Assembly: GCF_058153355.1 (NCBI RefSeq)
Contig: NZ_CM177019.1
Length of the DNA: 64,000 bases
Reading direction: 5' to 3' (one strand)
Below the pieces are notes generated by a model. That model searched no databases, was not told the origin of the DNA, and was given only the letters and a program-made list of their open reading frames with translations. Below are positions 9,584 through 53,885 of this stretch, one piece after another; positions within the stretch are counted from its first letter, which is position 1; each line of letters starts with the position of its first letter. Position numbers and translations under genes: made by a program.

Positions 9584-11566
9584 TTACCATTGATAACTAA
9601 CGAAAATTTTTCCGTTACGACCATCCTGTGGGATGCCTTGCGGCGACCAGTACTCTTTGTCGAAGGCGTTGCCCAATACCAGAGTAGTGGTCATACCTTT
9701 GAGCGCCTGCTGCCCTTGATAACTGACGTAGAAATCATTCACACCATAGCCAGGTTGTTTGCTGTAACTGCTGCTGATATGTGTTGAGCGATCGGCAAAC
9801 GTACCGACCCAACCAACAGAGAAGCCACTGTGAGCGATCGGAATATTCAGGGTGCTGGTAACGGTATCCGGGTTAATACTGGAAATATATTCCCCGGTAT
9901 CGGTGTCTTTGCCGCGGGTACGGTTATAGGCCACATCAAGGCTAAACAGATCAGTGGTATATTTCGTCATCACATCCCAGCCCCAGATTTTGGCGTTCGG
10001 GACGTTATACGACATAGTTGTCGCCGCCGCGAAATCGACAGTCGTGGAGATGTAATCCTTCGCTTTGGTATCAAAGTAGCTGGCTTTAAATTCCAGGGCA
10101 TCATTGGACAACATCAGGTCATCAAAACGCAGCCCAAAACCGTACTCCTGAGTTTCGTTAGTTTCCGGACGTAAGTTCGGGTTTGGCACCCAATAGTTGG
10201 TATAGAAGCGACCAATCGAGAAGTGCTTAGAATCGTTATACATTTCGCCCATCGTCGGGGCGCGGAATGCCTGGGCATATGAGCCAAATAACATCAGCCA
10301 GTTGGTCGGGTTGATAGTCATCCCCGCACGAGATGACCATTTGTCAGCATCAACATCTTTGTAGCCGTCGCTGCTACCGTGATAACTGTCATAGCGGGTT
10401 CCGCCAAGCAGGGTAATCGGCAGATCGCGTAAGGTGATCTCATCCTGTAGCCAGCCAGAGCTAAAATCGATTTTTGCTTGCGGAAAGCCCGTCGTCGCGC
10501 CACCCGGATGTTGTTCCTGACGATAATACTCACCGCCATATGTCAGTAAGTGAGAAGCGAAACTGTCGGCAAATAGAGTGGAACGGTTCTCCAGCCTGGC
10601 TCCTTTTGTTATCTGTTCACGATACTCGCCGGAACTCCCCGTGTTTTGCGCATTAATACGGACTTCCGACCAGTAAATTTTTGCATCTGCATTTAACCAG
10701 TCGTTGCCCTGCGGGGCGAGTTTATAAGAAAGCTGCGCATCGCGTTGAATTGTTGAACGATCAACCATCGGGTTGCTGTTTTCAGAAGCCTCAACGGTCT
10801 GCGGATTTTTTGGTTCACGCGCGTCGTTGTTGTAGTAACGCACTAAACCGCTCAGAGACTGGGCTGAATCAATTTGCCAGGTCCCTTTCGCCAGCATGTT
10901 ATTAATGGACTCGTCATTCGGCGCGGTTTCACCATTGCTCTGGCGTAAATCACCCCGATCGCGACTGGACCAGGCCACAATACCATCCAGATTTTCAGTT
11001 CGCCCAAACGCGCTCGCGCCTAATCCCAGGCTATGGTCCCCCGTGCCACCAGTACCAAAGACACGAAAACCACTACTTTGTCCTTCCTGCAATAAATCTT
11101 TTGCATCGACCGTATCGTAGGAGATCACCCCACCCAGCGCGCCACTGCCATACAGTAATGCTGAAGGTCCGCGAACAATCTCAACACGCTTGATCAGCGC
11201 CGGATCGAGAAAAGTACCATTCAGATGTCCGGTATCCGTTCCCTGGCGAACACCATCGACAAGAACCAGCACGCCGCGATGATCATAGCCACGCATATTT
11301 ACATCCTGACCGTTGGTTCGTCCGGTACCATCAAGAGTAATTCCAGGAACATGACGCAGCAGATCGGTGGCTGAAGTAGCCGTTTGATTTTCAGGAGCGG
11401 AAGTGTCGATGACGCTGACCATCATAGGCGCTTCGAAGGAACTACGGGCATTCCCCGTTGCCGTAACGGTCATGGTTTCAGTAGCAAAAGCAAACGTTGG
11501 CAAGGTGGCAGAAACAGCCAAAGCCAACAAACTCAAACGCAACGAGGTAAATTGCGGACGTGACAT
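9584..11566 (-). CDS. chuA: TonB-dependent outer-membrane haem/haemoglobin receptor ChuA (660 aa)
   Basis: ORF 9584..11566; signal peptide, plug and barrel motifs, C-terminal ...KIFVSYQW; matches ChuA/ShuA. Confidence 0.95.
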   Translation of the reverse strand: MSRPQFTSLRLSLLALAVSATLPTFAFATETMTVTATGNARSSFEAPMMVSVIDTSAPENQTATSATDLLRHVPGITLDGTGRTNGQDVNMRGYDHRGVLVLVDGVRQGTDTGHLNGTFLDPALIKRVEIVRGPSALLYGSGALGGVISYDTVDAKDLLQEGQSSGFRVFGTGGTGDHSLGLGASAFGRTENLDGIVAWSSRDRGDLRQSNGETAPNDESINNMLAKGTWQIDSAQSLSGLVRYYNNDAREPKNPQTVEASENSNPMVDRSTIQRDAQLSYKLAPQGNDWLNADAKIYWSEVRINAQNTGSSGEYREQITKGARLENRSTLFADSFASHLLTYGGEYYRQEQHPGGATTGFPQAKIDFSSGWLQDEITLRDLPITLLGGTRYDSYHGSSDGYKDVDADKWSSRAGMTINPTNWLMLFGSYAQAFRAPTMGEMYNDSKHFSIGRFYTNYWVPNPNLRPETNETQEYGFGLRFDDLMLSNDALEFKASYFDTKAKDYISTTVDFAAATTMSYNVPNAKIWGWDVMTKYTTDLFSLDVAYNRTRGKDTDTGEYISSINPDTVTSTLNIPIAHSGFSVGWVGTFADRSTHISSSYSKQPGYGVNDFYVSYQGQQALKGMTTTLVLGNAFDKEYWSPQGIPQDGRNGKIFVSYQW

Positions 11567-11855
11567 AGCGATTCTCCATGAGGAAAATAAAAAATGCTGG
11601 CTGCCTGGGTTAATACCGGGGTGGCTTGCGAGAAATAAATTTATTTAAAATTCAGAGCGATAATATTCGCCGGGTGAGTTTACAGGCGTTTATATCCCAT
11701 GAAATTGCCTGGTATCTCGGCAAATACGCAAAAGCACGCCCTCTTTGTCAGGCAAAACGATATGCCCCATCAGGAGTGAAGAGCGCTGTGCGTTATCCCT
11801 TGCAAATGCTATGGTTTTGTTATCCATATGGTCGTGTTTTGTTAAGCGCGAACGT

Positions 11856-11874
11856 GATAATGAGAATTATTATC
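11856..11874. promoter_or_regulatory. Fur box upstream of chuA (about 290 bp before the start codon, implying a long leader)
   Basis: gataatgagaattattatc, about 16/19 to the consensus GATAATGATAATCATTATC. Confidence 0.6.
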
Positions 11875-12203
11875 GATCAATTTTTTATGATCAAGCTTTT
11901 TTTAACCGCCATTAACACAATAAACAGGGGGTTATGAAACCTATCCTGCGCCCTGGAAACCACTTTGTTTTTATGGTTATTCCCCCATGACCTCATCACT
12001 AAACTTTGTCGTTAACAGTGATAATTTTCTCTTCTCTTTGCTCTGCAAGCCGCGATATCTCTGGGTTCTCAGCTTTTTCCCGCGCTGAAATTTAGTCGGT
12101 AACAAGAACGTTAGCTGACGAAGCATCTTGATAAAAATCAAAAATAAATACGCTTGTAACGCCTTGCGTATTGAATCGACGGTTGTATTTCATATATAAC
12201 TCA

Positions 12204-12225
12204 AATGATAATCATGATCATTCTC
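12204..12225. promoter_or_regulatory. Fur box overlapping the chuT promoter
   Basis: aatgataatcatgatcattctc, about 25 bp upstream of the chuT ATG at 12249. Confidence 0.65.
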
Positions 12226-12248
12226 AATTTGATAAGAGTTCTCATATT

Positions 12249-13163
12249 ATGCCAAGGATCATCACCAGGCCGTTTCTTTTTTCCCCACTGACGTTATGTA
12301 TTTCAGCCGTGGCCTCTGCCGCGAAGACCGCGGTAAAACGAAAAAAATTGTTTACGGCAGTACTGGCTCTTAGCTGGGCTTTTAGCGTAACGGCTGCCGA
12401 ACGTATCGTGGTCGCAGGAGGATCGCTGACGGAGCTAATCTACGCGATGGGCGCTGGCGAACGCGTGGTTGGTGTCGATGAAACGACATCTTATCCACCA
12501 GAAACCGCCAAACTGCCGCATATTGGCTACTGGAAACAACTCAGCAGCGAAGGCATTTTGTCACTTCGCCCGGATAGCGTAATTACCTGGCAGGATGCCG
12601 GGCCACAAATTGTGCTCGACCAACTACGAGCGCAGAAAGTCAACGTCGTCACCCTGCCGCGTGTGCCTGCCACCCTTGAGCAGATGTACGCCAACATTCG
12701 CCAACTGGCAAAAACGCTACAGGTTCCTGAACAAGGCGAGGCGCTGGTGACACAGATCAACCAACGCCTGGAGCGAGTACAGCAAAACGTGGCGGGCAAA
12801 AAAGCCCCGGTTAAAGCCATGTTTATTCTCTCCGCAGGCGGAAGTGCGCCACAGGTTGCCGGTAAAGGCAGCGTCGCGGACGCCATTCTTTCGCTTGCCG
12901 GAGCAGAAAACGTCGCAACCCACCAGCAGTACAAAAGCTACAGTGCAGAATCACTGATTGCGGCTAATCCAGAAGTGATTGTCGTAACCTCACAAATGGT
13001 CGATGGCGATATTAACCGGCTACGTTCTATTGCCGGAATTACCCACACTGCCGCATGGAAAAACCAGCGCATTATCACCGTTGATCAAAACCTGATTCTG
13101 GGAATGGGTCCGCGTATTGCTGATGTCGTTGAGTCTTTACACCAGCAGCTTTGGCCGCAATAA
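12249..13163 (+). CDS. chuT: Periplasmic haem-binding protein ChuT (ABC transporter substrate-binding protein), 304 aa
   Basis: ORF 12171..13163; the ORF-track start lies upstream of the Fur box/promoter, so the start is placed at the ATG at 12249 (MPRIITRP...). Start is uncertain and could be further downstream. Confidence 0.8.
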   Translation: MPRIITRPFLFSPLTLCISAVASAAKTAVKRKKLFTAVLALSWAFSVTAAERIVVAGGSLTELIYAMGAGERVVGVDETTSYPPETAKLPHIGYWKQLSSEGILSLRPDSVITWQDAGPQIVLDQLRAQKVNVVTLPRVPATLEQMYANIRQLAKTLQVPEQGEALVTQINQRLERVQQNVAGKKAPVKAMFILSAGGSAPQVAGKGSVADAILSLAGAENVATHQQYKSYSAESLIAANPEVIVVTSQMVDGDINRLRSIAGITHTAAWKNQRIITVDQNLILGMGPRIADVVESLHQQLWPQ

Positions 13164-47253: not shown

Positions 47254-49242
47254 CTACTTTTCTTCCAGGTAACTCTCTTCGAAGATTTCAATAGGGAGTG
47301 GGCGAGCAAAAAGGAAGCCCTGGGCAATACCAACGCCCGCTTTTGCCAGCCAGTCGCGTTGTGCTTCAGTCTCCACGCCTTCGGCAATCATTTGTAAGTT
47401 CAGGCTTTGCGCCAACATGATAATTGCAGCAATCATGCTGCTATCTTCCGGCAAGCCTTCAACAAACATTTTGTCGATTTTTAACACGTCGATTGGCAAC
47501 GATTTCATATGCTGCAGCTGACGCAGCCCTGCGTAGCCCATGCCGAAATCATCCAGCGCCACCCGAACGCCGGCATTACGCAACGGGCGGAGAATTGCCA
47601 CCGCTGCATGAGGGTCGTCAATACGTCGGCTTTCTGTCACTTCCAGAATCAGTGTTCCCGGCTGAATGCGATAGCGGGTTAACAGTTCCAGCATATCCGC
47701 TACCATATTCGGGTGCATTAGTTGCAGCGCTGAGAGGTTTACCGACAAGGGCAACATAATGCCGCGCTCTTGCCAGGCAGCCAGCAGTCGACAGGACTCT
47801 TCCAGCACCCAGTGACCGACGGTAACCATCAGCCCACAGCACTCAATGCGATCGATTAAGCCATCCGGCAGATCCCAACTGCCATCCGGTTGCTGGATAC
47901 GCAGTAACACTTCCGCACTGACCAGTTTACCGCTGGTCATCTCGACCTGTGGCTGTAACCAAATCGCAAACTGATGATTTTCCAGTGCATTAAGGATATC
48001 GCTCTCTTCCGTCAACCGCTGTTGGGCGGCTTCCATCTGCTGCGGATCAAAGAACTGAATCTGATTCTTACCTTTATGGCGAGCGGTAAATGCCGCAGAA
48101 ATAGCGCGACTGTAAAGCTGTTCGGCGGTGAGATCGCCGTAGAACATCGCCACGCCAATGCTACAGTGCGGACGAAGTTGAATACGTTCAATCGGCAGGC
48201 GCTCGCTCATGATAGTGAGCACTTGCTGACCTAAAGTAATAGCATGCCACGGCTCCTGTACACCGTTGGCAATGACAGCAAAGTCATAACCACTAATCTG
48301 CGCGAGGATCATACGTGGCGACAGTACCGATTTGAGTTTTTCCACCAGCGTCAGCAGCAGAATTTCTCGTTGCGCCTCTTTCAGCACGCCCGCAGTATCA
48401 CGCAGGGTTTCACAGGTGATAATCATCAGCGCGGTGGTTTGTTTACGCGCGACAACCTGCTCCAGCATCTCCATCAGCAAGGCTTTGTTCGGCAAATCCG
48501 ACACCGGGAAGCGCATCGCATTTTCGTTCTGTTCTTCATAATGGCGCTGCAGCAATTGCTGGTTGAGGTTGTAACTGCGCACCAGCATACCGATTTCATC
48601 GTCCTGATGCAGACGTGGTAATGCCAGTTGGTGACCAACAAGCTCCTGGGCTGGGATGGCGTTAAGTTCACGAGCAATATTGCGTAACGGATGCAAAATC
48701 AGGCGGTTAATGCACCAGCTAATCGCCACCGTCAATATTAACGACAAAAGTAAGTAAATGGTCACTAACGTTGAGAGGGTGCTCATCACGAACTTATACA
48801 TGCGGAAGGAATCCGCCTGTAGCACCAGATAGGCAATTGGCTGCGGGTTTGCCGGACGTTCCAGCGAGTAAACGCCCAGCGAGATTTGCACCGGTAGCTC
48901 AAACATGCGAGTAACCATTACCGGCACCGGACGCTCTGGAATAAAACTTTTACGCAGCGCCTGGAACTGGTTAGGCAGCACCACATCGGCACGGCTGACC
49001 ACGCCTGCCGGTTTAATGCTGGCAAGAATAGCTTCCGCTTCGGGAATATCGCCTTTCAAAATGGCAGAAGATAAGGGTTCGCGGACAGAGCGAGCAATGC
49101 TTTCCAGTTGCGTAGCCGTGTTATAGCGATTCTGCTGGACCAGATGGAACAGCAAAACGGTGCAAAAAATAAAAACGAACACCAGGACAACGGCTGCCAC
49201 CATTGCCATCTGCTTGATTGTTAACGAGCGACTTACGCGCAA
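47254..49242 (-). CDS. pdeK: HAMP-GGDEF(degenerate)-EAL c-di-GMP phosphodiesterase PdeK (YhjK), 662 aa
   Basis: ORF 47254..49242; N-terminal TM/HAMP region, C-terminal EAL domain; synteny. Confidence 0.9.
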
Positions 49243-52797: not shown

Positions 52798-53885
52798 TCC
52801 TGGCCCCAGTCAGGTAATAACTCACCTTTTGTCGAGAAGCGGAAACGGTGTTGATCCCAGCCTTGTCCAAACAGGGTCAGCACATAGTTGTAATAGGCAT
52901 CGCTGCCGGGAAAGTTATCGGCCACGCGCTGGCGCTGAACGGCCTGTGCATCGCGGTTTTGTAAAAAGGGCAGCATGGCGGCAGAAAAACCGACCGGTCC
53001 TTTACCCTGCGCTTTCCCCGTAGCCACATCGACTTTTTCCGGCGGATAGCCGTTTTTCTCGGTGAATGTCGCCATCGGTTTAAACCGGTTGAGCATCCGC
53101 GCTTTTTGCGGATCGCTGTCAGGCATCATGCCTACCCACATGTAAACACGGATAGCGTCGTAGCTGCTGATCAATGTTTTTTCGGCTTTTAGCTGCCAGC
53201 CTTTGTCTTTCTCATAGCGCACCCAGTCTGGTGAAAAGCCTTTCGGGGCGGTTTCCAGCAATAAACGTTGATTGGTTTCGCGCAGCGTAGTCCACGGCGC
53301 GCCAAAGCGGGTGAAATACTGCGCCAGCGTCGGCGGCAGGTAGCTGGGGTTAAAACGCCAGCTGTTATCCTCAGCAAATCCCACTTTGCCCGGCAACAAC
53401 ATGGAACCCAGCCCAGGCACCGTCACTACTTCCTCCCGCGCAATACGTTTTAACAACGCGCTGCCGATATCCGTATAACGCTGCTCTTTCCACAACCGCC
53501 CCGCCTCCAGCAATGACCAGGCCATCCAGACATCACCATCAGAGGCCGAATTGCTGTCCAGCACTTCCCACTTACTGTTCTCTTTCTTGCCCCACAGCCA
53601 GGCGGGCAAATGTTCTTTTAAAGAACCCTGAGCGAGATTGTTCTGCGTCCAGTCGAGAATATTATCGAAAGCTGCACGGTCGTTAGCCGCCAGGGCAAAG
53701 AACATGCCGTAACTTTGCCCTTCGGAGGTGGTGATTTTGCGCGCGTCGCTGGGGTCGATGACGCGCCCTTCCTGACTGATGTAATCCTTTTTGAACTGCT
53801 CCCAAGCAGGCCAGTTGCAGGCAGCCTGAACACTAAAGGCAGCCAGCAGCAGCATCGTCACGAGTCCACTACGCAACACATTCAT
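52779..53885 (-). CDS. bcsZ: Periplasmic endoglucanase BcsZ (GH8), 368 aa
   Basis: ORF 52779..53891 trimmed to [22 protein letters not shown]...; 19-bp overlap with the bcsC start. Confidence 0.9.

Follow-up and report, generated by a model that had tools for sequence, protein, structure and literature searches.

We are highly confident that the analysed region belongs to chuAS, the haem-receptor operon of E. coli, and comprises its Fur-controlled promoter and its 291-nt 5' UTR, with a FourU-type hairpin at the end of the leader. The chuA thermometer itself is already known: it is represented in Rfam and has been dissected in at least three papers. What is possibly new is the place that this leader occupies, as it sits where relatives carry the small regulator gene hemP.

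The chuA gene for the TonB-dependent haem/haemoglobin receptor extends over positions 9584..11566 on the minus strand of the window, that is, of the whole 64-kb stretch of DNA that was analysed. According to the ORF listing and the RefSeq annotation of near-identical genomes, it is an ORF of 660 aa with its ATG at 11566..11564. The chuA region is found in 2,236 of 5,426 complete E. coli genomes. The initial annotation had located the best Fur box far upstream of this ATG, and our analysis confirms the site. The Fur box of the chuA promoter (GATAATAATTCTCATTATC, 11874..11856, minus strand) overlaps the -10 region and the transcription start, and deviates from the 19-mer consensus at three positions in the minus-strand reading and at two in the plus-strand reading. 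Only one other Fur-like site with at most three mismatches is present in the 64-kb window, namely the chuT/shuT box at 12207..12225, at a chance expectation of 0.02. For the Fur dependence of chuA as such we rely on the literature. A sigma-70-like promoter (11866..11894, minus strand) with the -35 element TTGATC at 11894..11889, a spacer of 17 nt and the -10 element AATAAT at 11871..11866 was called purely as a match in a consensus scan; in the cross-genus alignment, a CTTGAT hexamer and the Fur box are kept across genera.

In EHEC Sakai, the start site of chuA was placed by dRNA-seq at position 4,391,862, which gives a UTR of 291 nt (Sy & Tree, 2022; PMC9002310). Alignment of the two sequences, with zero indels across the leader, transfers this start to window position 11857, and the 5' UTR accordingly covers 11567..11857 on the minus strand with +1 at about 11857. 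The mapped start falls inside the 19-bp Fur box, which lies over both the -10 element and the start, the arrangement of a Fur-repressed promoter. The mapped start is 9 nt past the scanned -10 element; because this spacing is not ideal, the actual -10 may lie 2 nt away from the called hexamer. The suggestion of a long leader, with approximately 290 nt between Fur box and start codon, was borne out by these data, as we measured 289 nt from the Fur box to the chuA ATG and the mapped start lies about 291 nt away from the ATG rather than within about 40 nt of it. The 293-nt chuA clone and the RT-PCR bracket of 278-342 nt for shuA are also consistent with a leader of 291 nt. The allele in the window is of the EHEC/Shigella type and carries 10 substitutions in comparison to Sakai over the 291 nt, all of them 5' of the hairpin.

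At its 3' end, the minus-strand leader reads ...CAGCAUUUUUUAUUUUCCUCAUGGAGAAUCGCU-AUG, exactly as it had been quoted when a FourU-type thermosensor over the ribosome-binding site was first suspected in this DNA. The covariance model of the Rfam family RF02597 (shuA_thermo, 'shuA/chuA 5' UTR thermoregulator'), which includes the FourU thermometer and the AUG, matches positions 11595..11564 on the minus strand at E = 1.2e-08. Its 60.1 bits exceed the gathering score of 58, and 32 of 32 positions are identical to the consensus. The match takes in the chuA ATG; in near-identical genomes, the ORF that follows carries the annotation ChuA/ShuA. No other Rfam family, including the other FourU families, was matched at E <=10. 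Outside the window, the RF02597 cut-off was reached in Escherichia only: Pseudocitrobacter scored 41.3 bits, and for the other 11 non-Escherichia loci scanned no match was listed at E <=1.

The hairpin (11571..11588, minus strand) is built from the 5' arm AUUUUCC (11588..11582), the loop UCAU and the 3' arm GGAGAAU (11577..11571), with the Shine-Dalgarno sequence GGAG at 11577..11574 lying within the 3' arm. U11587..U11584 pair with A11572, A11573, G11574 and A11575, and C11583 and C11582 pair with G11576 and G11577. The initial annotation had called the pairing not clean; the structure that it had in mind does exist as a simple 7-bp hairpin, and the pairing itself is uncomplicated. With a free energy of -6.1 kcal/mol at 37 °C (z = -2.8 in comparison to shuffled sequence), the hairpin was predicted alone as well as in contexts of 78, 133 and 326 nt at all temperatures tested, and the ribosome-binding site was occluded in every fold run. 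The comparison of RNAfold predictions at 25 and 37 °C that had been proposed returned the weakening of the hairpin, from -8.4 to -6.1 kcal/mol and further to -5.1 kcal/mol at 42 °C, but not its opening: melting between 25 and 37 °C was not predicted, and the unpaired probability of the ribosome-binding site was <=0.07. As the predicted hairpin persists at either temperature, this comparison alone could not settle thermosensing, and the claim therefore rests on published reporter assays. The leader as a whole folds no better than shuffled sequence (z = -0.10).

These assays addressed the exact hairpin sequence that is present in the window. With a 293-nt leader clone and mutations of U-19, a FourU thermometer was demonstrated for shuA and for chuA of UPEC (Kouse et al., 2013, PLoS One 8:e63781, PMC3660397), and a correction from 2021 concerning some of the western blots upheld the conclusions (PMC8168886). 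For the identical hairpin, the published behaviour is that of a FourU thermometer: at an unchanged mRNA level translation goes up with temperature, and expression is lowered by stabilising and raised by destabilising mutations. The effect was reproduced with the exchange U273A, where it was modest with 2.6-fold at 25 °C (Sy & Tree, 2022; PMC9002310); U-19 and U273 are the same nucleotide, which corresponds to position 11585 in the window. The identical sequence tested in both studies, together with the Rfam match above the gathering score, substantiates the FourU-type thermosensor, with the temperature dependence of chuA expression being known from the literature only. A comparable FourU hairpin in Yersinia hemR1 gave no thermoregulation. 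Compared with the shuA/chuA thermoregulator RF02597 (Kouse et al., 2013), the window is identical in the 32-nt sequence, the 7-bp hairpin, the position relative to the AUG, the long Fur-controlled leader and the host gene. We found no difference in the window element itself.

FourU thermometers, such as those of Salmonella agsA and Yersinia lcrF, act by a zipper-like melting mechanism. In contrast to these other FourU families, with which it shares no sequence or structure homology according to Rfam, the chuA hairpin stands at the end of a 291-nt leader with multiple regulatory inputs. Rho-dependent termination takes place in this leader at +271 and requires the segment +177..+217 (Sy & Tree, 2022; PMC9002310), which corresponds to 11641..11681 on the minus strand after transfer of the coordinates through the Sakai alignment. 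In addition, the small RNA CyaR activates the leader just upstream of the hairpin, about 15 nt 5' of the Shine-Dalgarno sequence (Sy & Tree, 2022; PMC9002310), and RyhB and Esr41 repress chuA at the ribosome-binding site. The neighbouring divergent gene of the same locus, shuT, is likewise Fur-controlled and thermoregulated; its 5' UTR thermometer (Wei et al., 2017; PMC5458455) differs in consisting of a 42-nt leader with one hairpin, which does not belong to the FourU type.

Under iron limitation, Fur would leave its box at 11874..11856 and transcription would start near 11857. The last 30 nt of the leader would then fold by pairing of 11588..11582 with 11577..11571, burying the GGAG in a hairpin that at about 25 °C should be stable enough to limit translation and at 37 °C weak enough to permit it. 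The combination of Fur control and hairpin would thus allow ChuA production only at low iron and host temperature, and this confinement of haem-receptor production is textbook-level knowledge for the locus.

Within Escherichia, the hairpin is invariant in six alleles and therefore offers no covariation. RNAalifold on these six alleles returned a covariation term of +0.53 and did not support conserved structure in the variable central part of the leader. Predictions for 54 distinct orthologous sequences from -30 to +3, which come from more than 20 genera, show a paired ribosome-binding site in every case, with at least three of its four bases paired in 53 of them and two in Pragia. The FourU register pairs 88.6% of the alignment cells in comparison to 46-76% with a slid register; the U-rich arm allows register slips (76% of cells are paired at +1), and cross-genus covariation lends this register weak support.

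Besides the thermometer, the comparative data offer a second reading of this region. The leader may go back to an ancestral hemP (hmuP) gene, of which it would be a remnant, and to the HemP-responsive element in the adjoining intergenic region; in that case two conserved boxes, an alternative helix termed S2 and perhaps the protein YdiE, and not the FourU hairpin alone, would form the main gate on chuA translation. We give this reading a nearly even chance, and it extends the best explanation more than it excludes the thermometer. It builds on the conserved distance between Fur box and ATG: in nearly all of about 80 chuA-ortholog loci a Fur box is found at a comparable distance, in most of them approximately 290-330 nt from the ATG. 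Across more than 20 genera, this same interval of about 300 nt encodes an intact PF10636 HemP/HmuP in most of the roughly 75-80 loci examined (68 of about 78), among them that of C. koseri, whose ChuA is the closest. The corresponding interval in the window runs from ATGGATAAC to AAATAA (11641..11827, minus strand), is non-coding in Escherichia and is read here as a decayed hemP remnant; the segment with the published Rho requirement coincides with its 3' end. The interval lies between the Fur promoter and the receptor gene, and both the start context ATGGATAAC and the stop context AAATAA of hemP, the ends being all of the gene that is recognisable in Escherichia, align in register. An anchored global alignment of the Escherichia interval with hemP gave a residual similarity of z = 5.4. 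The conserved position and the homologous ends support a relic, not a gene.

The same order is found in the hemP-hemR, hmuP-shmR and chuP-chuR operons (Yersinia hemPRSTUV; de Lima et al., 2022, PMC9131926), where a Fur promoter is followed first by an interval of some 190 nt, next by a spacer that is 66-100 nt long and carries GCCAGCC...CAGCCAGC boxes, and then by the gene for the TonB-dependent haem receptor. In contrast to these operons, the Escherichia hemP reading frame is lost and leaves no PF10636 signal. It speaks against a hemP remnant that no Escherichia leader contains a significant HemP signal, neither with protein nor with DNA profiles. No HemP domain (PF10636) was detected, and searches of Pfam and NCBIfam with the upstream ORF in this interval found nothing. 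When all frames of 5-6 Escherichia alleles were searched with a hidden Markov model of the 68 neighbouring HemPs, the scores were about 0 bits, in comparison to 60-64 bits for intact HemP orthologs. Profile searches of the Escherichia leaders, both protein and DNA, remained at E >0.04 even with a one-sequence search space (E = 0.71 in nhmmer with the HemP DNA profile), a profile of the HemP subgroup produced one weak match only, and local pairwise z-scores between leader and hemP ranged from -1.5 to 2.7; the anchored global alignment was the one comparison that yielded a signal. The similarity of the interior alone is weak as well, with 4 of 200 shuffles scoring as good (p ~0.02), and the variable columns of the interval show no codon periodicity. 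In the literature, the shu locus is described as being without a hemP homolog.

The intergenic part of such an operon is better preserved, and its two boxes are more conserved than the thermometer itself. Box 1 (GCAAGCCACCCCGG, 11629..11616) and box 2 (AGGCAGCCAGC, 11606..11596), both on the minus strand, hardly vary among 72 sequences that represent more than 20 genera, and in Proteus and Halomonas they recur in the spacer that separates hemP from the receptor gene. We refer to them as HPRE-like based on their conservation and their likeness to the HmuP-responsive element (HPRE): they are of the GCCAGCC / CAGCCAGC type, are located tens of nt 5' of the receptor start and resemble the published HPRE of C. 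violaceum chuR (CCCGCAAGCCAGCCGACAGCCAGCCAGCG), the HPRE being defined here by this one quoted sequence. Box 1 has a single match in the window (0.07 expected). Further matches to AGGCAGCCAGC at 47775 and 53837 both lie within long ORFs on the other strand and were treated as chance. The 87-nt 3' module, of which box 2 is a part, shows an identity of at least 95% in 2,235 of the 2,236 chuA-positive E. coli genomes and occurs at one place per genome, with no paralogous copies in E. coli. Between E. coli and E. albertii the module reaches 90-92.5% identity in comparison to 64-68% at fourfold-degenerate sites, which argues for selection on the module and is in line with a retained control element.

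Box 2 may also take part in the alternative helix. In S2, the distal U-tract (AGCAUUUUUU, 11589..11598, minus strand), identified by folding and alignment, is the predicted pairing partner of the ribosome-binding site. For the window, a free energy of -3.5 kcal/mol is predicted for S2 in comparison to -6.1 kcal/mol for the FourU hairpin at 37 °C, and for most sequences from Enterobacter and many from Citrobacter, S2 comes out as the structure of minimum energy, at about -5 to -10 kcal/mol. Its register pairs 90.7% of the alignment cells, in comparison to 49-55% when slid, and one column pair shows a compensatory change from CG to UA. The predicted CyaR pairing site (GCAGCCAGCAUUUU, 11591..11604, minus strand), obtained with RNAduplex, is the recurring core of every top-ranked solution between K-12 CyaR and the leader from +217 on, and its position agrees with the published one about 15 nt upstream of the Shine-Dalgarno sequence. 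Full-length RNAduplex runs of CyaR against the whole leader led to unrealistic long duplexes; the restriction to +217 onward was informative.

From these models we infer that box 2 and the adjacent U-run, which are also the predicted pairing site of CyaR, can fold into a helix that covers the ribosome-binding site in place of the FourU hairpin. In the U273A mutant, S2 is predicted to take over and, as long as the CyaR site is free, to cover the ribosome-binding site again, which matches the larger CyaR effect published for U273A (1.6-fold vs 1.3-fold). S2 may represent the 'additional repressive element' postulated by Sy & Tree, and its conservation and its fit to the CyaR data both favour the remnant of hemP with its intergenic element as a gate on translation. 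A candidate trans factor is available with the E. coli HemP-family protein YdiE (PDB 4YNX), which is annotated as hemP between aroH and selO. The HPRE-like boxes of chuA may be read in trans by this unlinked orphan paralog.

Put in evolutionary terms, the leader could be what remains of an ancestral hemP-chuA operon: the coding part of hemP would have decayed, and the hemP-chuA intergenic control module would have been retained under purifying selection and reused, with box 2 and the U-run serving as CyaR dock and as S2, and the boxes perhaps being read by the candidate YdiE. We put this scenario forward tentatively, as one that has a reasonable chance of being correct but falls short of an even one. 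A decay of hemP would explain why the leader contains an untranslated stretch that is prone to Rho termination.

A different role for the same interval, which we consider very unlikely, is that the 45-codon upstream ORF taken from the ORF listing (11827..11690, minus strand; MDNKTIAFARDN...) encodes a translated leader peptide or small protein, whose translation governs the access of Rho and hence chuA expression. This would be compatible with its ATG at the hemP start position, with longer ORFs in the same frame in some alleles, e.g. 53 codons in ST131, and with the already published Rho-dependent termination in the chuA leader. However, the variable columns are distributed 30/28/32 over the three codon phases in six Escherichia alleles and thus give no sign of coding constraint, stop positions and frames vary between Escherichia alleles, the ORF as such is not conserved, its ATG lacks a preceding Shine-Dalgarno sequence, and it is unannotated in RefSeq and has no family match in Pfam or NCBIfam. 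Finally, that the plus-strand ORF 11626..11937 is a real gene antisense to the leader is barely conceivable despite its 103 open codons, and its initial dismissal as a non-gene stands, since this 103-aa ORF begins with TTG, has zero matches in Pfam or NCBIfam, is unannotated by RefSeq in the three E. coli genomes inspected, and overlaps the Fur box and the promoter as well as a hypervariable leader segment that is just 74-80% identical between allele lineages and is without codon periodicity.

The comparative result offers a simple origin for a leader that the literature has called merely 'unusually long', and also for its sensitivity to Rho. If the descent from a hemP-chuA operon is true, it would tie the HemP/HmuP regulator family, the mechanism of which is disputed, to the best-studied enteric haem-uptake system. 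It predicts that chuA expression would depend on YdiE/HemP, and that a back-up helix over the ribosome-binding site would be relieved by CyaR.

The chuA reading frame (9584..11566, minus strand; ATG 11566..11564) comprises 660 codons, and a near-identical gene in other RefSeq genomes is annotated as the TonB-dependent haem/haemoglobin receptor ChuA/ShuA. Of 5,426 complete genomes of E. coli, 2,236 carry the whole region, and the top match has 99.7% identity. The initial annotation placed a Fur box far upstream of the ATG, and this site, GATAATAATTCTCATTATC (11874..11856, minus strand), is one of only two in the 64 kb with ≤3 mismatches to the 19-mer Fur consensus (the other at 12207..12225; 0.02 expected). 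In a pattern scan, it is overlapped by a sigma-70-like TTGATC-17-AATAAT. The start site determined by dRNA-seq in EHEC Sakai, which gives a 291-nt UTR (Sy & Tree 2022, PMC9002310), maps to 11857 (+1, minus strand) in an alignment with zero indels in the leader. This bears out a long leader of ~290 nt and not a start within about 40 nt of the ATG. The leader end ...CAGCAUUUUUUAUUUUCCUCAUGGAGAAUCGCU stands directly before the chuA ATG on the minus strand, as had been quoted, and the antisense ORF 11626..11937 was rightly dismissed as a gene, since a family search and a check of the RefSeq annotation gave neither match nor annotation.

The proposed RNA thermometer in this leader is real, was correctly read and is already known from Rfam and from publications that tested the exact sequence. 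Scanning 11300..12400 against Rfam, the sole match above the curated threshold was RF02597, the "shuA/chuA 5' UTR thermoregulator", at 11595..11564 (minus strand; 60.1 bits versus a gathering score of 58), with all 32 positions equal to the family consensus. The hairpin pairs AUUUUCC (11588..11582) with GGAGAAU (11577..11571) around a UCAU loop (-6.1 kcal/mol at 37 °C; z = -2.8 versus shuffles), and is predicted identically in 78-, 133- and 326-nt contexts and at all temperatures from 20 to 45 °C. Between 25 °C and 37 °C its calculated free energy changes from -8.4 to -6.1 kcal/mol, and the ribosome-binding site (RBS) has an unpaired probability of ≤0.07 at 37 °C, so that thermodynamic folding predicts occlusion and weakening without melting. 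Therefore, the suggested comparison of folds at 25 °C and 37 °C holds for occlusion and weakening, does not return melting, and is not decisive alone. With a distant start site and an occluded RBS, the thermometer interpretation stands. It is also backed by published assays: control of shuA, whose leader was bracketed to 278-342 nt, is temperature-dependent and post-transcriptional, the same control applies to a UPEC chuA clone with a 293-nt leader, and both stabilising and destabilising changes were made at U-19 (Kouse et al. 2013, PMC3660397); a 2021 correction addressed spliced blots and upheld the conclusions (PMC8168886). This residue, U273 in the Sakai numbering, corresponds to 11585 (minus strand), and with U273A the rise at 25 °C was 2.6-fold, which confirmed the thermometer (Sy & Tree 2022, PMC9002310).

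The UTR has been termed unusually long, with no origin offered (Sy & Tree 2022, PMC9002310), and a comparison across genera suggests one. Among 80 chuA-ortholog loci from species-representative genomes (>20 genera, ChuA identity down to 57%), most have the chuA ATG some 290-330 nt from the Fur box. In 68 this interval encodes an intact small protein with the C-terminus ...IDSKxLLGxEGRVIIEHDGQHYLLRQTxAGKLILTK, which scores 60-64 bits against Pfam PF10636 (hemP) and has its stop codon about 66-127 nt before the ATG. An intact hemP is likewise present in Citrobacter koseri, whose ChuA is the closest (88% identity). In the window and in all five Escherichia species representatives, only broken frames are found here, and the shu locus lacks a hemP homolog according to a published account. 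No HemP remnant was detected by searching the 45-codon upstream ORF against Pfam and NCBIfam, by a custom HemP HMM on all Escherichia leader frames or by an nhmmer DNA profile for hemP on the Escherichia leader. The interval keeps its place and its two ends: ATGGATAAC (11827..), at the start, and AAATAA (11646..11641), at the stop, align in register with hemP. When six Escherichia alleles were globally aligned, with anchors, to the eight closest hemP genes, the result exceeded column-shuffled controls (z = 5.4; 0/200 shuffles as good), and with the ends fixed the interior alone gave z = 2.4 (4/200 as good). The Escherichia interval is thus likely a hemP relic, although sequence does not prove it.

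Five Escherichia allele lineages share only 74-80% identity over the middle of the leader (11855..11648), where they differ by 0-3 indel positions; the window and ST131 likewise share 74-80% here, versus 93% at chuA fourfold-degenerate sites, 100% in the promoter and 97.5% in the 3' module. Variable columns are spread 30/28/32 across codon phases, and this absence of codon periodicity indicates that nothing in the middle leader is under coding constraint. The stretch diverges far more than synonymous sites. Its sub-segments are nearest to differing lineages, a hint of a mosaic of old alleles. RNAalifold found no covariation in this part. Rho-dependent termination has been reported at +271 (11587, minus strand), requiring +177..+217 (Sy & Tree 2022, PMC9002310); the latter, published as repressive, maps to 11681..11641 (minus strand), where the hemP-equivalent interval has its 3' end. 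A natural reading would be that Rho acts on a former coding region that is no longer translated. Besides, RNAalifold proposes an 11-bp long-range helix (11761..11771 with 11557..11567, minus strand) between GAUGGGGCAUA (+87..+97) and UAUGUCACGUC, the latter spanning the start codon, the final base of the UTR before it and the first codons. All six Escherichia alleles retain the helix, mostly by wobble-compatible changes, and 5' truncations deleting it had little extra effect (Sy & Tree 2022, PMC9002310). A weak terminator-like hairpin inside +177..+217 (11656..11671, minus strand; GGCGAAUAUUAUCGCU then CUGAAUUUUA) lacks conservation in the alleles of ST131 and E. albertii, and the Term-seq data show no 3' end there (Sy & Tree 2022, PMC9002310).

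The hemP-chuA spacer is conserved best. A motif (C)GCcAGCCACCCaGG - N5-15 - CCcAGGCAGCCAGC - gCUUUUc is almost invariant in 72 sequences and is matched in the window by box 1 (11629..11616) and box 2 (11606..11596, both minus strand). The spacers from hemP to the downstream receptor gene in Proteus mirabilis and on a Halomonas replicon also contain both boxes, and these resemble CCCGCAAGCCAGCCGACAGCCAGCCAGCG, the HmuP-responsive element (HPRE) quoted for Chromobacterium violaceum chuR. Exact copies of AGGCAGCCAGC also occur at 47775..47785 and 53837..53847 (plus strand), making three in the window versus 0.05 expected; these two lie inside long minus-strand ORFs, one at a signal-peptide-like N-terminus, and are considered coincidental. 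Escherichia lineages share 90-100% identity in the 81-nt 3' module, compared with only 64-76% at their chuA fourfold-degenerate sites. An 87-nt 3' stretch reaches 95% identity or more in 2,235 of the 2,236 E. coli genomes, with one copy per genome. The module is therefore under purifying selection, even though no hemP adjoins it. E. coli does possess an unlinked HemP-family gene, ydiE (product PDB 4YNX), labelled hemP by PGAP and located between aroH and selO (L087:2426-2617, E. coli NZ_CP090612.1); the region downstream of it in this genome contains neither a receptor gene nor GCCAGCC-type boxes. YdiE may be a factor that acts on chuA. Among the PLSDB entries listed as "plasmids", several with a length of 4-5 Mb are evidently whole chromosomes.

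Across genera, pairing of the RBS is predicted for every one of 54 distinct -30..+3 sequences (3 or more of 4 bases in 53; 2 of 4 in Pragia), and its partner differs by sequence: either the proximal U-tract (S1, the FourU hairpin) or a distal tract directly after box 2 (11598..11589; S2). For most Enterobacter and many Citrobacter sequences, the fold of lowest energy is S2 (about -5 to -10 kcal/mol). In 72 sequences, 88.6% of alignment cells are paired for S1 (46-76% with slid register) and 90.7% for S2 (49-55%), counts that are biased towards both helices because these were derived from the window sequence; one S2 column pair is CG in 49 sequences and UA or AU in 9. For the window, S1 is predicted to make up 98-99% of the wild-type ensemble, and S2 to take over in U273A (62-84%). 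The sRNA CyaR activates by pairing ~15 nt upstream of the RBS, and Hfq has two binding sites on the leader (Sy & Tree 2022, PMC9002310). In our duplex search, restricted to the leader from +217 onward, every top-ranked local solution contained the core chuA GCAGCCAGCAUUUU (11604..11591) with CyaR AAAAUGCUAGCUGU, a stretch consisting of box 2 and the distal tract. The CyaR effect was 1.6-fold in U273A versus 1.3-fold in the wild type, and an "additional repressive element" was postulated (Sy & Tree 2022, PMC9002310). In folding, S2 is predicted to re-occlude the RBS in U273A unless the CyaR site is blocked, whereas no effect is predicted in the wild type. This would fit the larger effect in U273A and the postulated element, and leaves the wild-type effect unaccounted for.

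The divergent chuT/shuT starts at 12249 with its own Fur box (12207..12225, plus strand), which agrees with the published shuT leader: 42 nt long, with a Fur site just after the start and its own RNA thermometer, not of the FourU type (PMC5458455). Within the coding region of chuT (12302..12377, plus strand), Rfam gives a match to Hammerhead_HH9 that stays below threshold (20.3 bits versus a gathering score of 52, E = 0.041) and is most likely due to chance. Between the chuA and chuT promoters lie ~310 bp without annotation (11895..12206). Of 11 non-Escherichia loci, 9 lack any long ORF in divergent orientation within the 1.5-kb flank, and the other two, Enterobacter wuhouensis and Limnobaculum allomyrinae, carry one 703-809 nt upstream that is unlike ChuT; the Escherichia locus is thus rearranged, and the chuA-chuT spacer may hold the junction. 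The Fur box is 420-515 nt, not ~300 nt, from the ATG in L004 (Escherichia sp. MOD1-EC7003), L039, L042, L043, L051 and L070 (Buttiauxella). hemP is absent or displaced in all of these except L051, which retains a HemP C-terminal fragment ~200 nt from the ATG. L004 and L043 contain ORFs ending ...ERIPMSLHK that look like an inserted small repeat element, resembling an ERIC-type repeat.

Taken for itself, the thermometer is already catalogued in Rfam and tested on the exact sequence. The further features may have been described earlier in the primary HPRE literature. In the literature consulted, three leads are absent: a chuA leader in the position of hemP, HPRE-like boxes without a hemP in cis, and a conserved alternative helix (S2) that occludes the RBS and overlaps the CyaR site.
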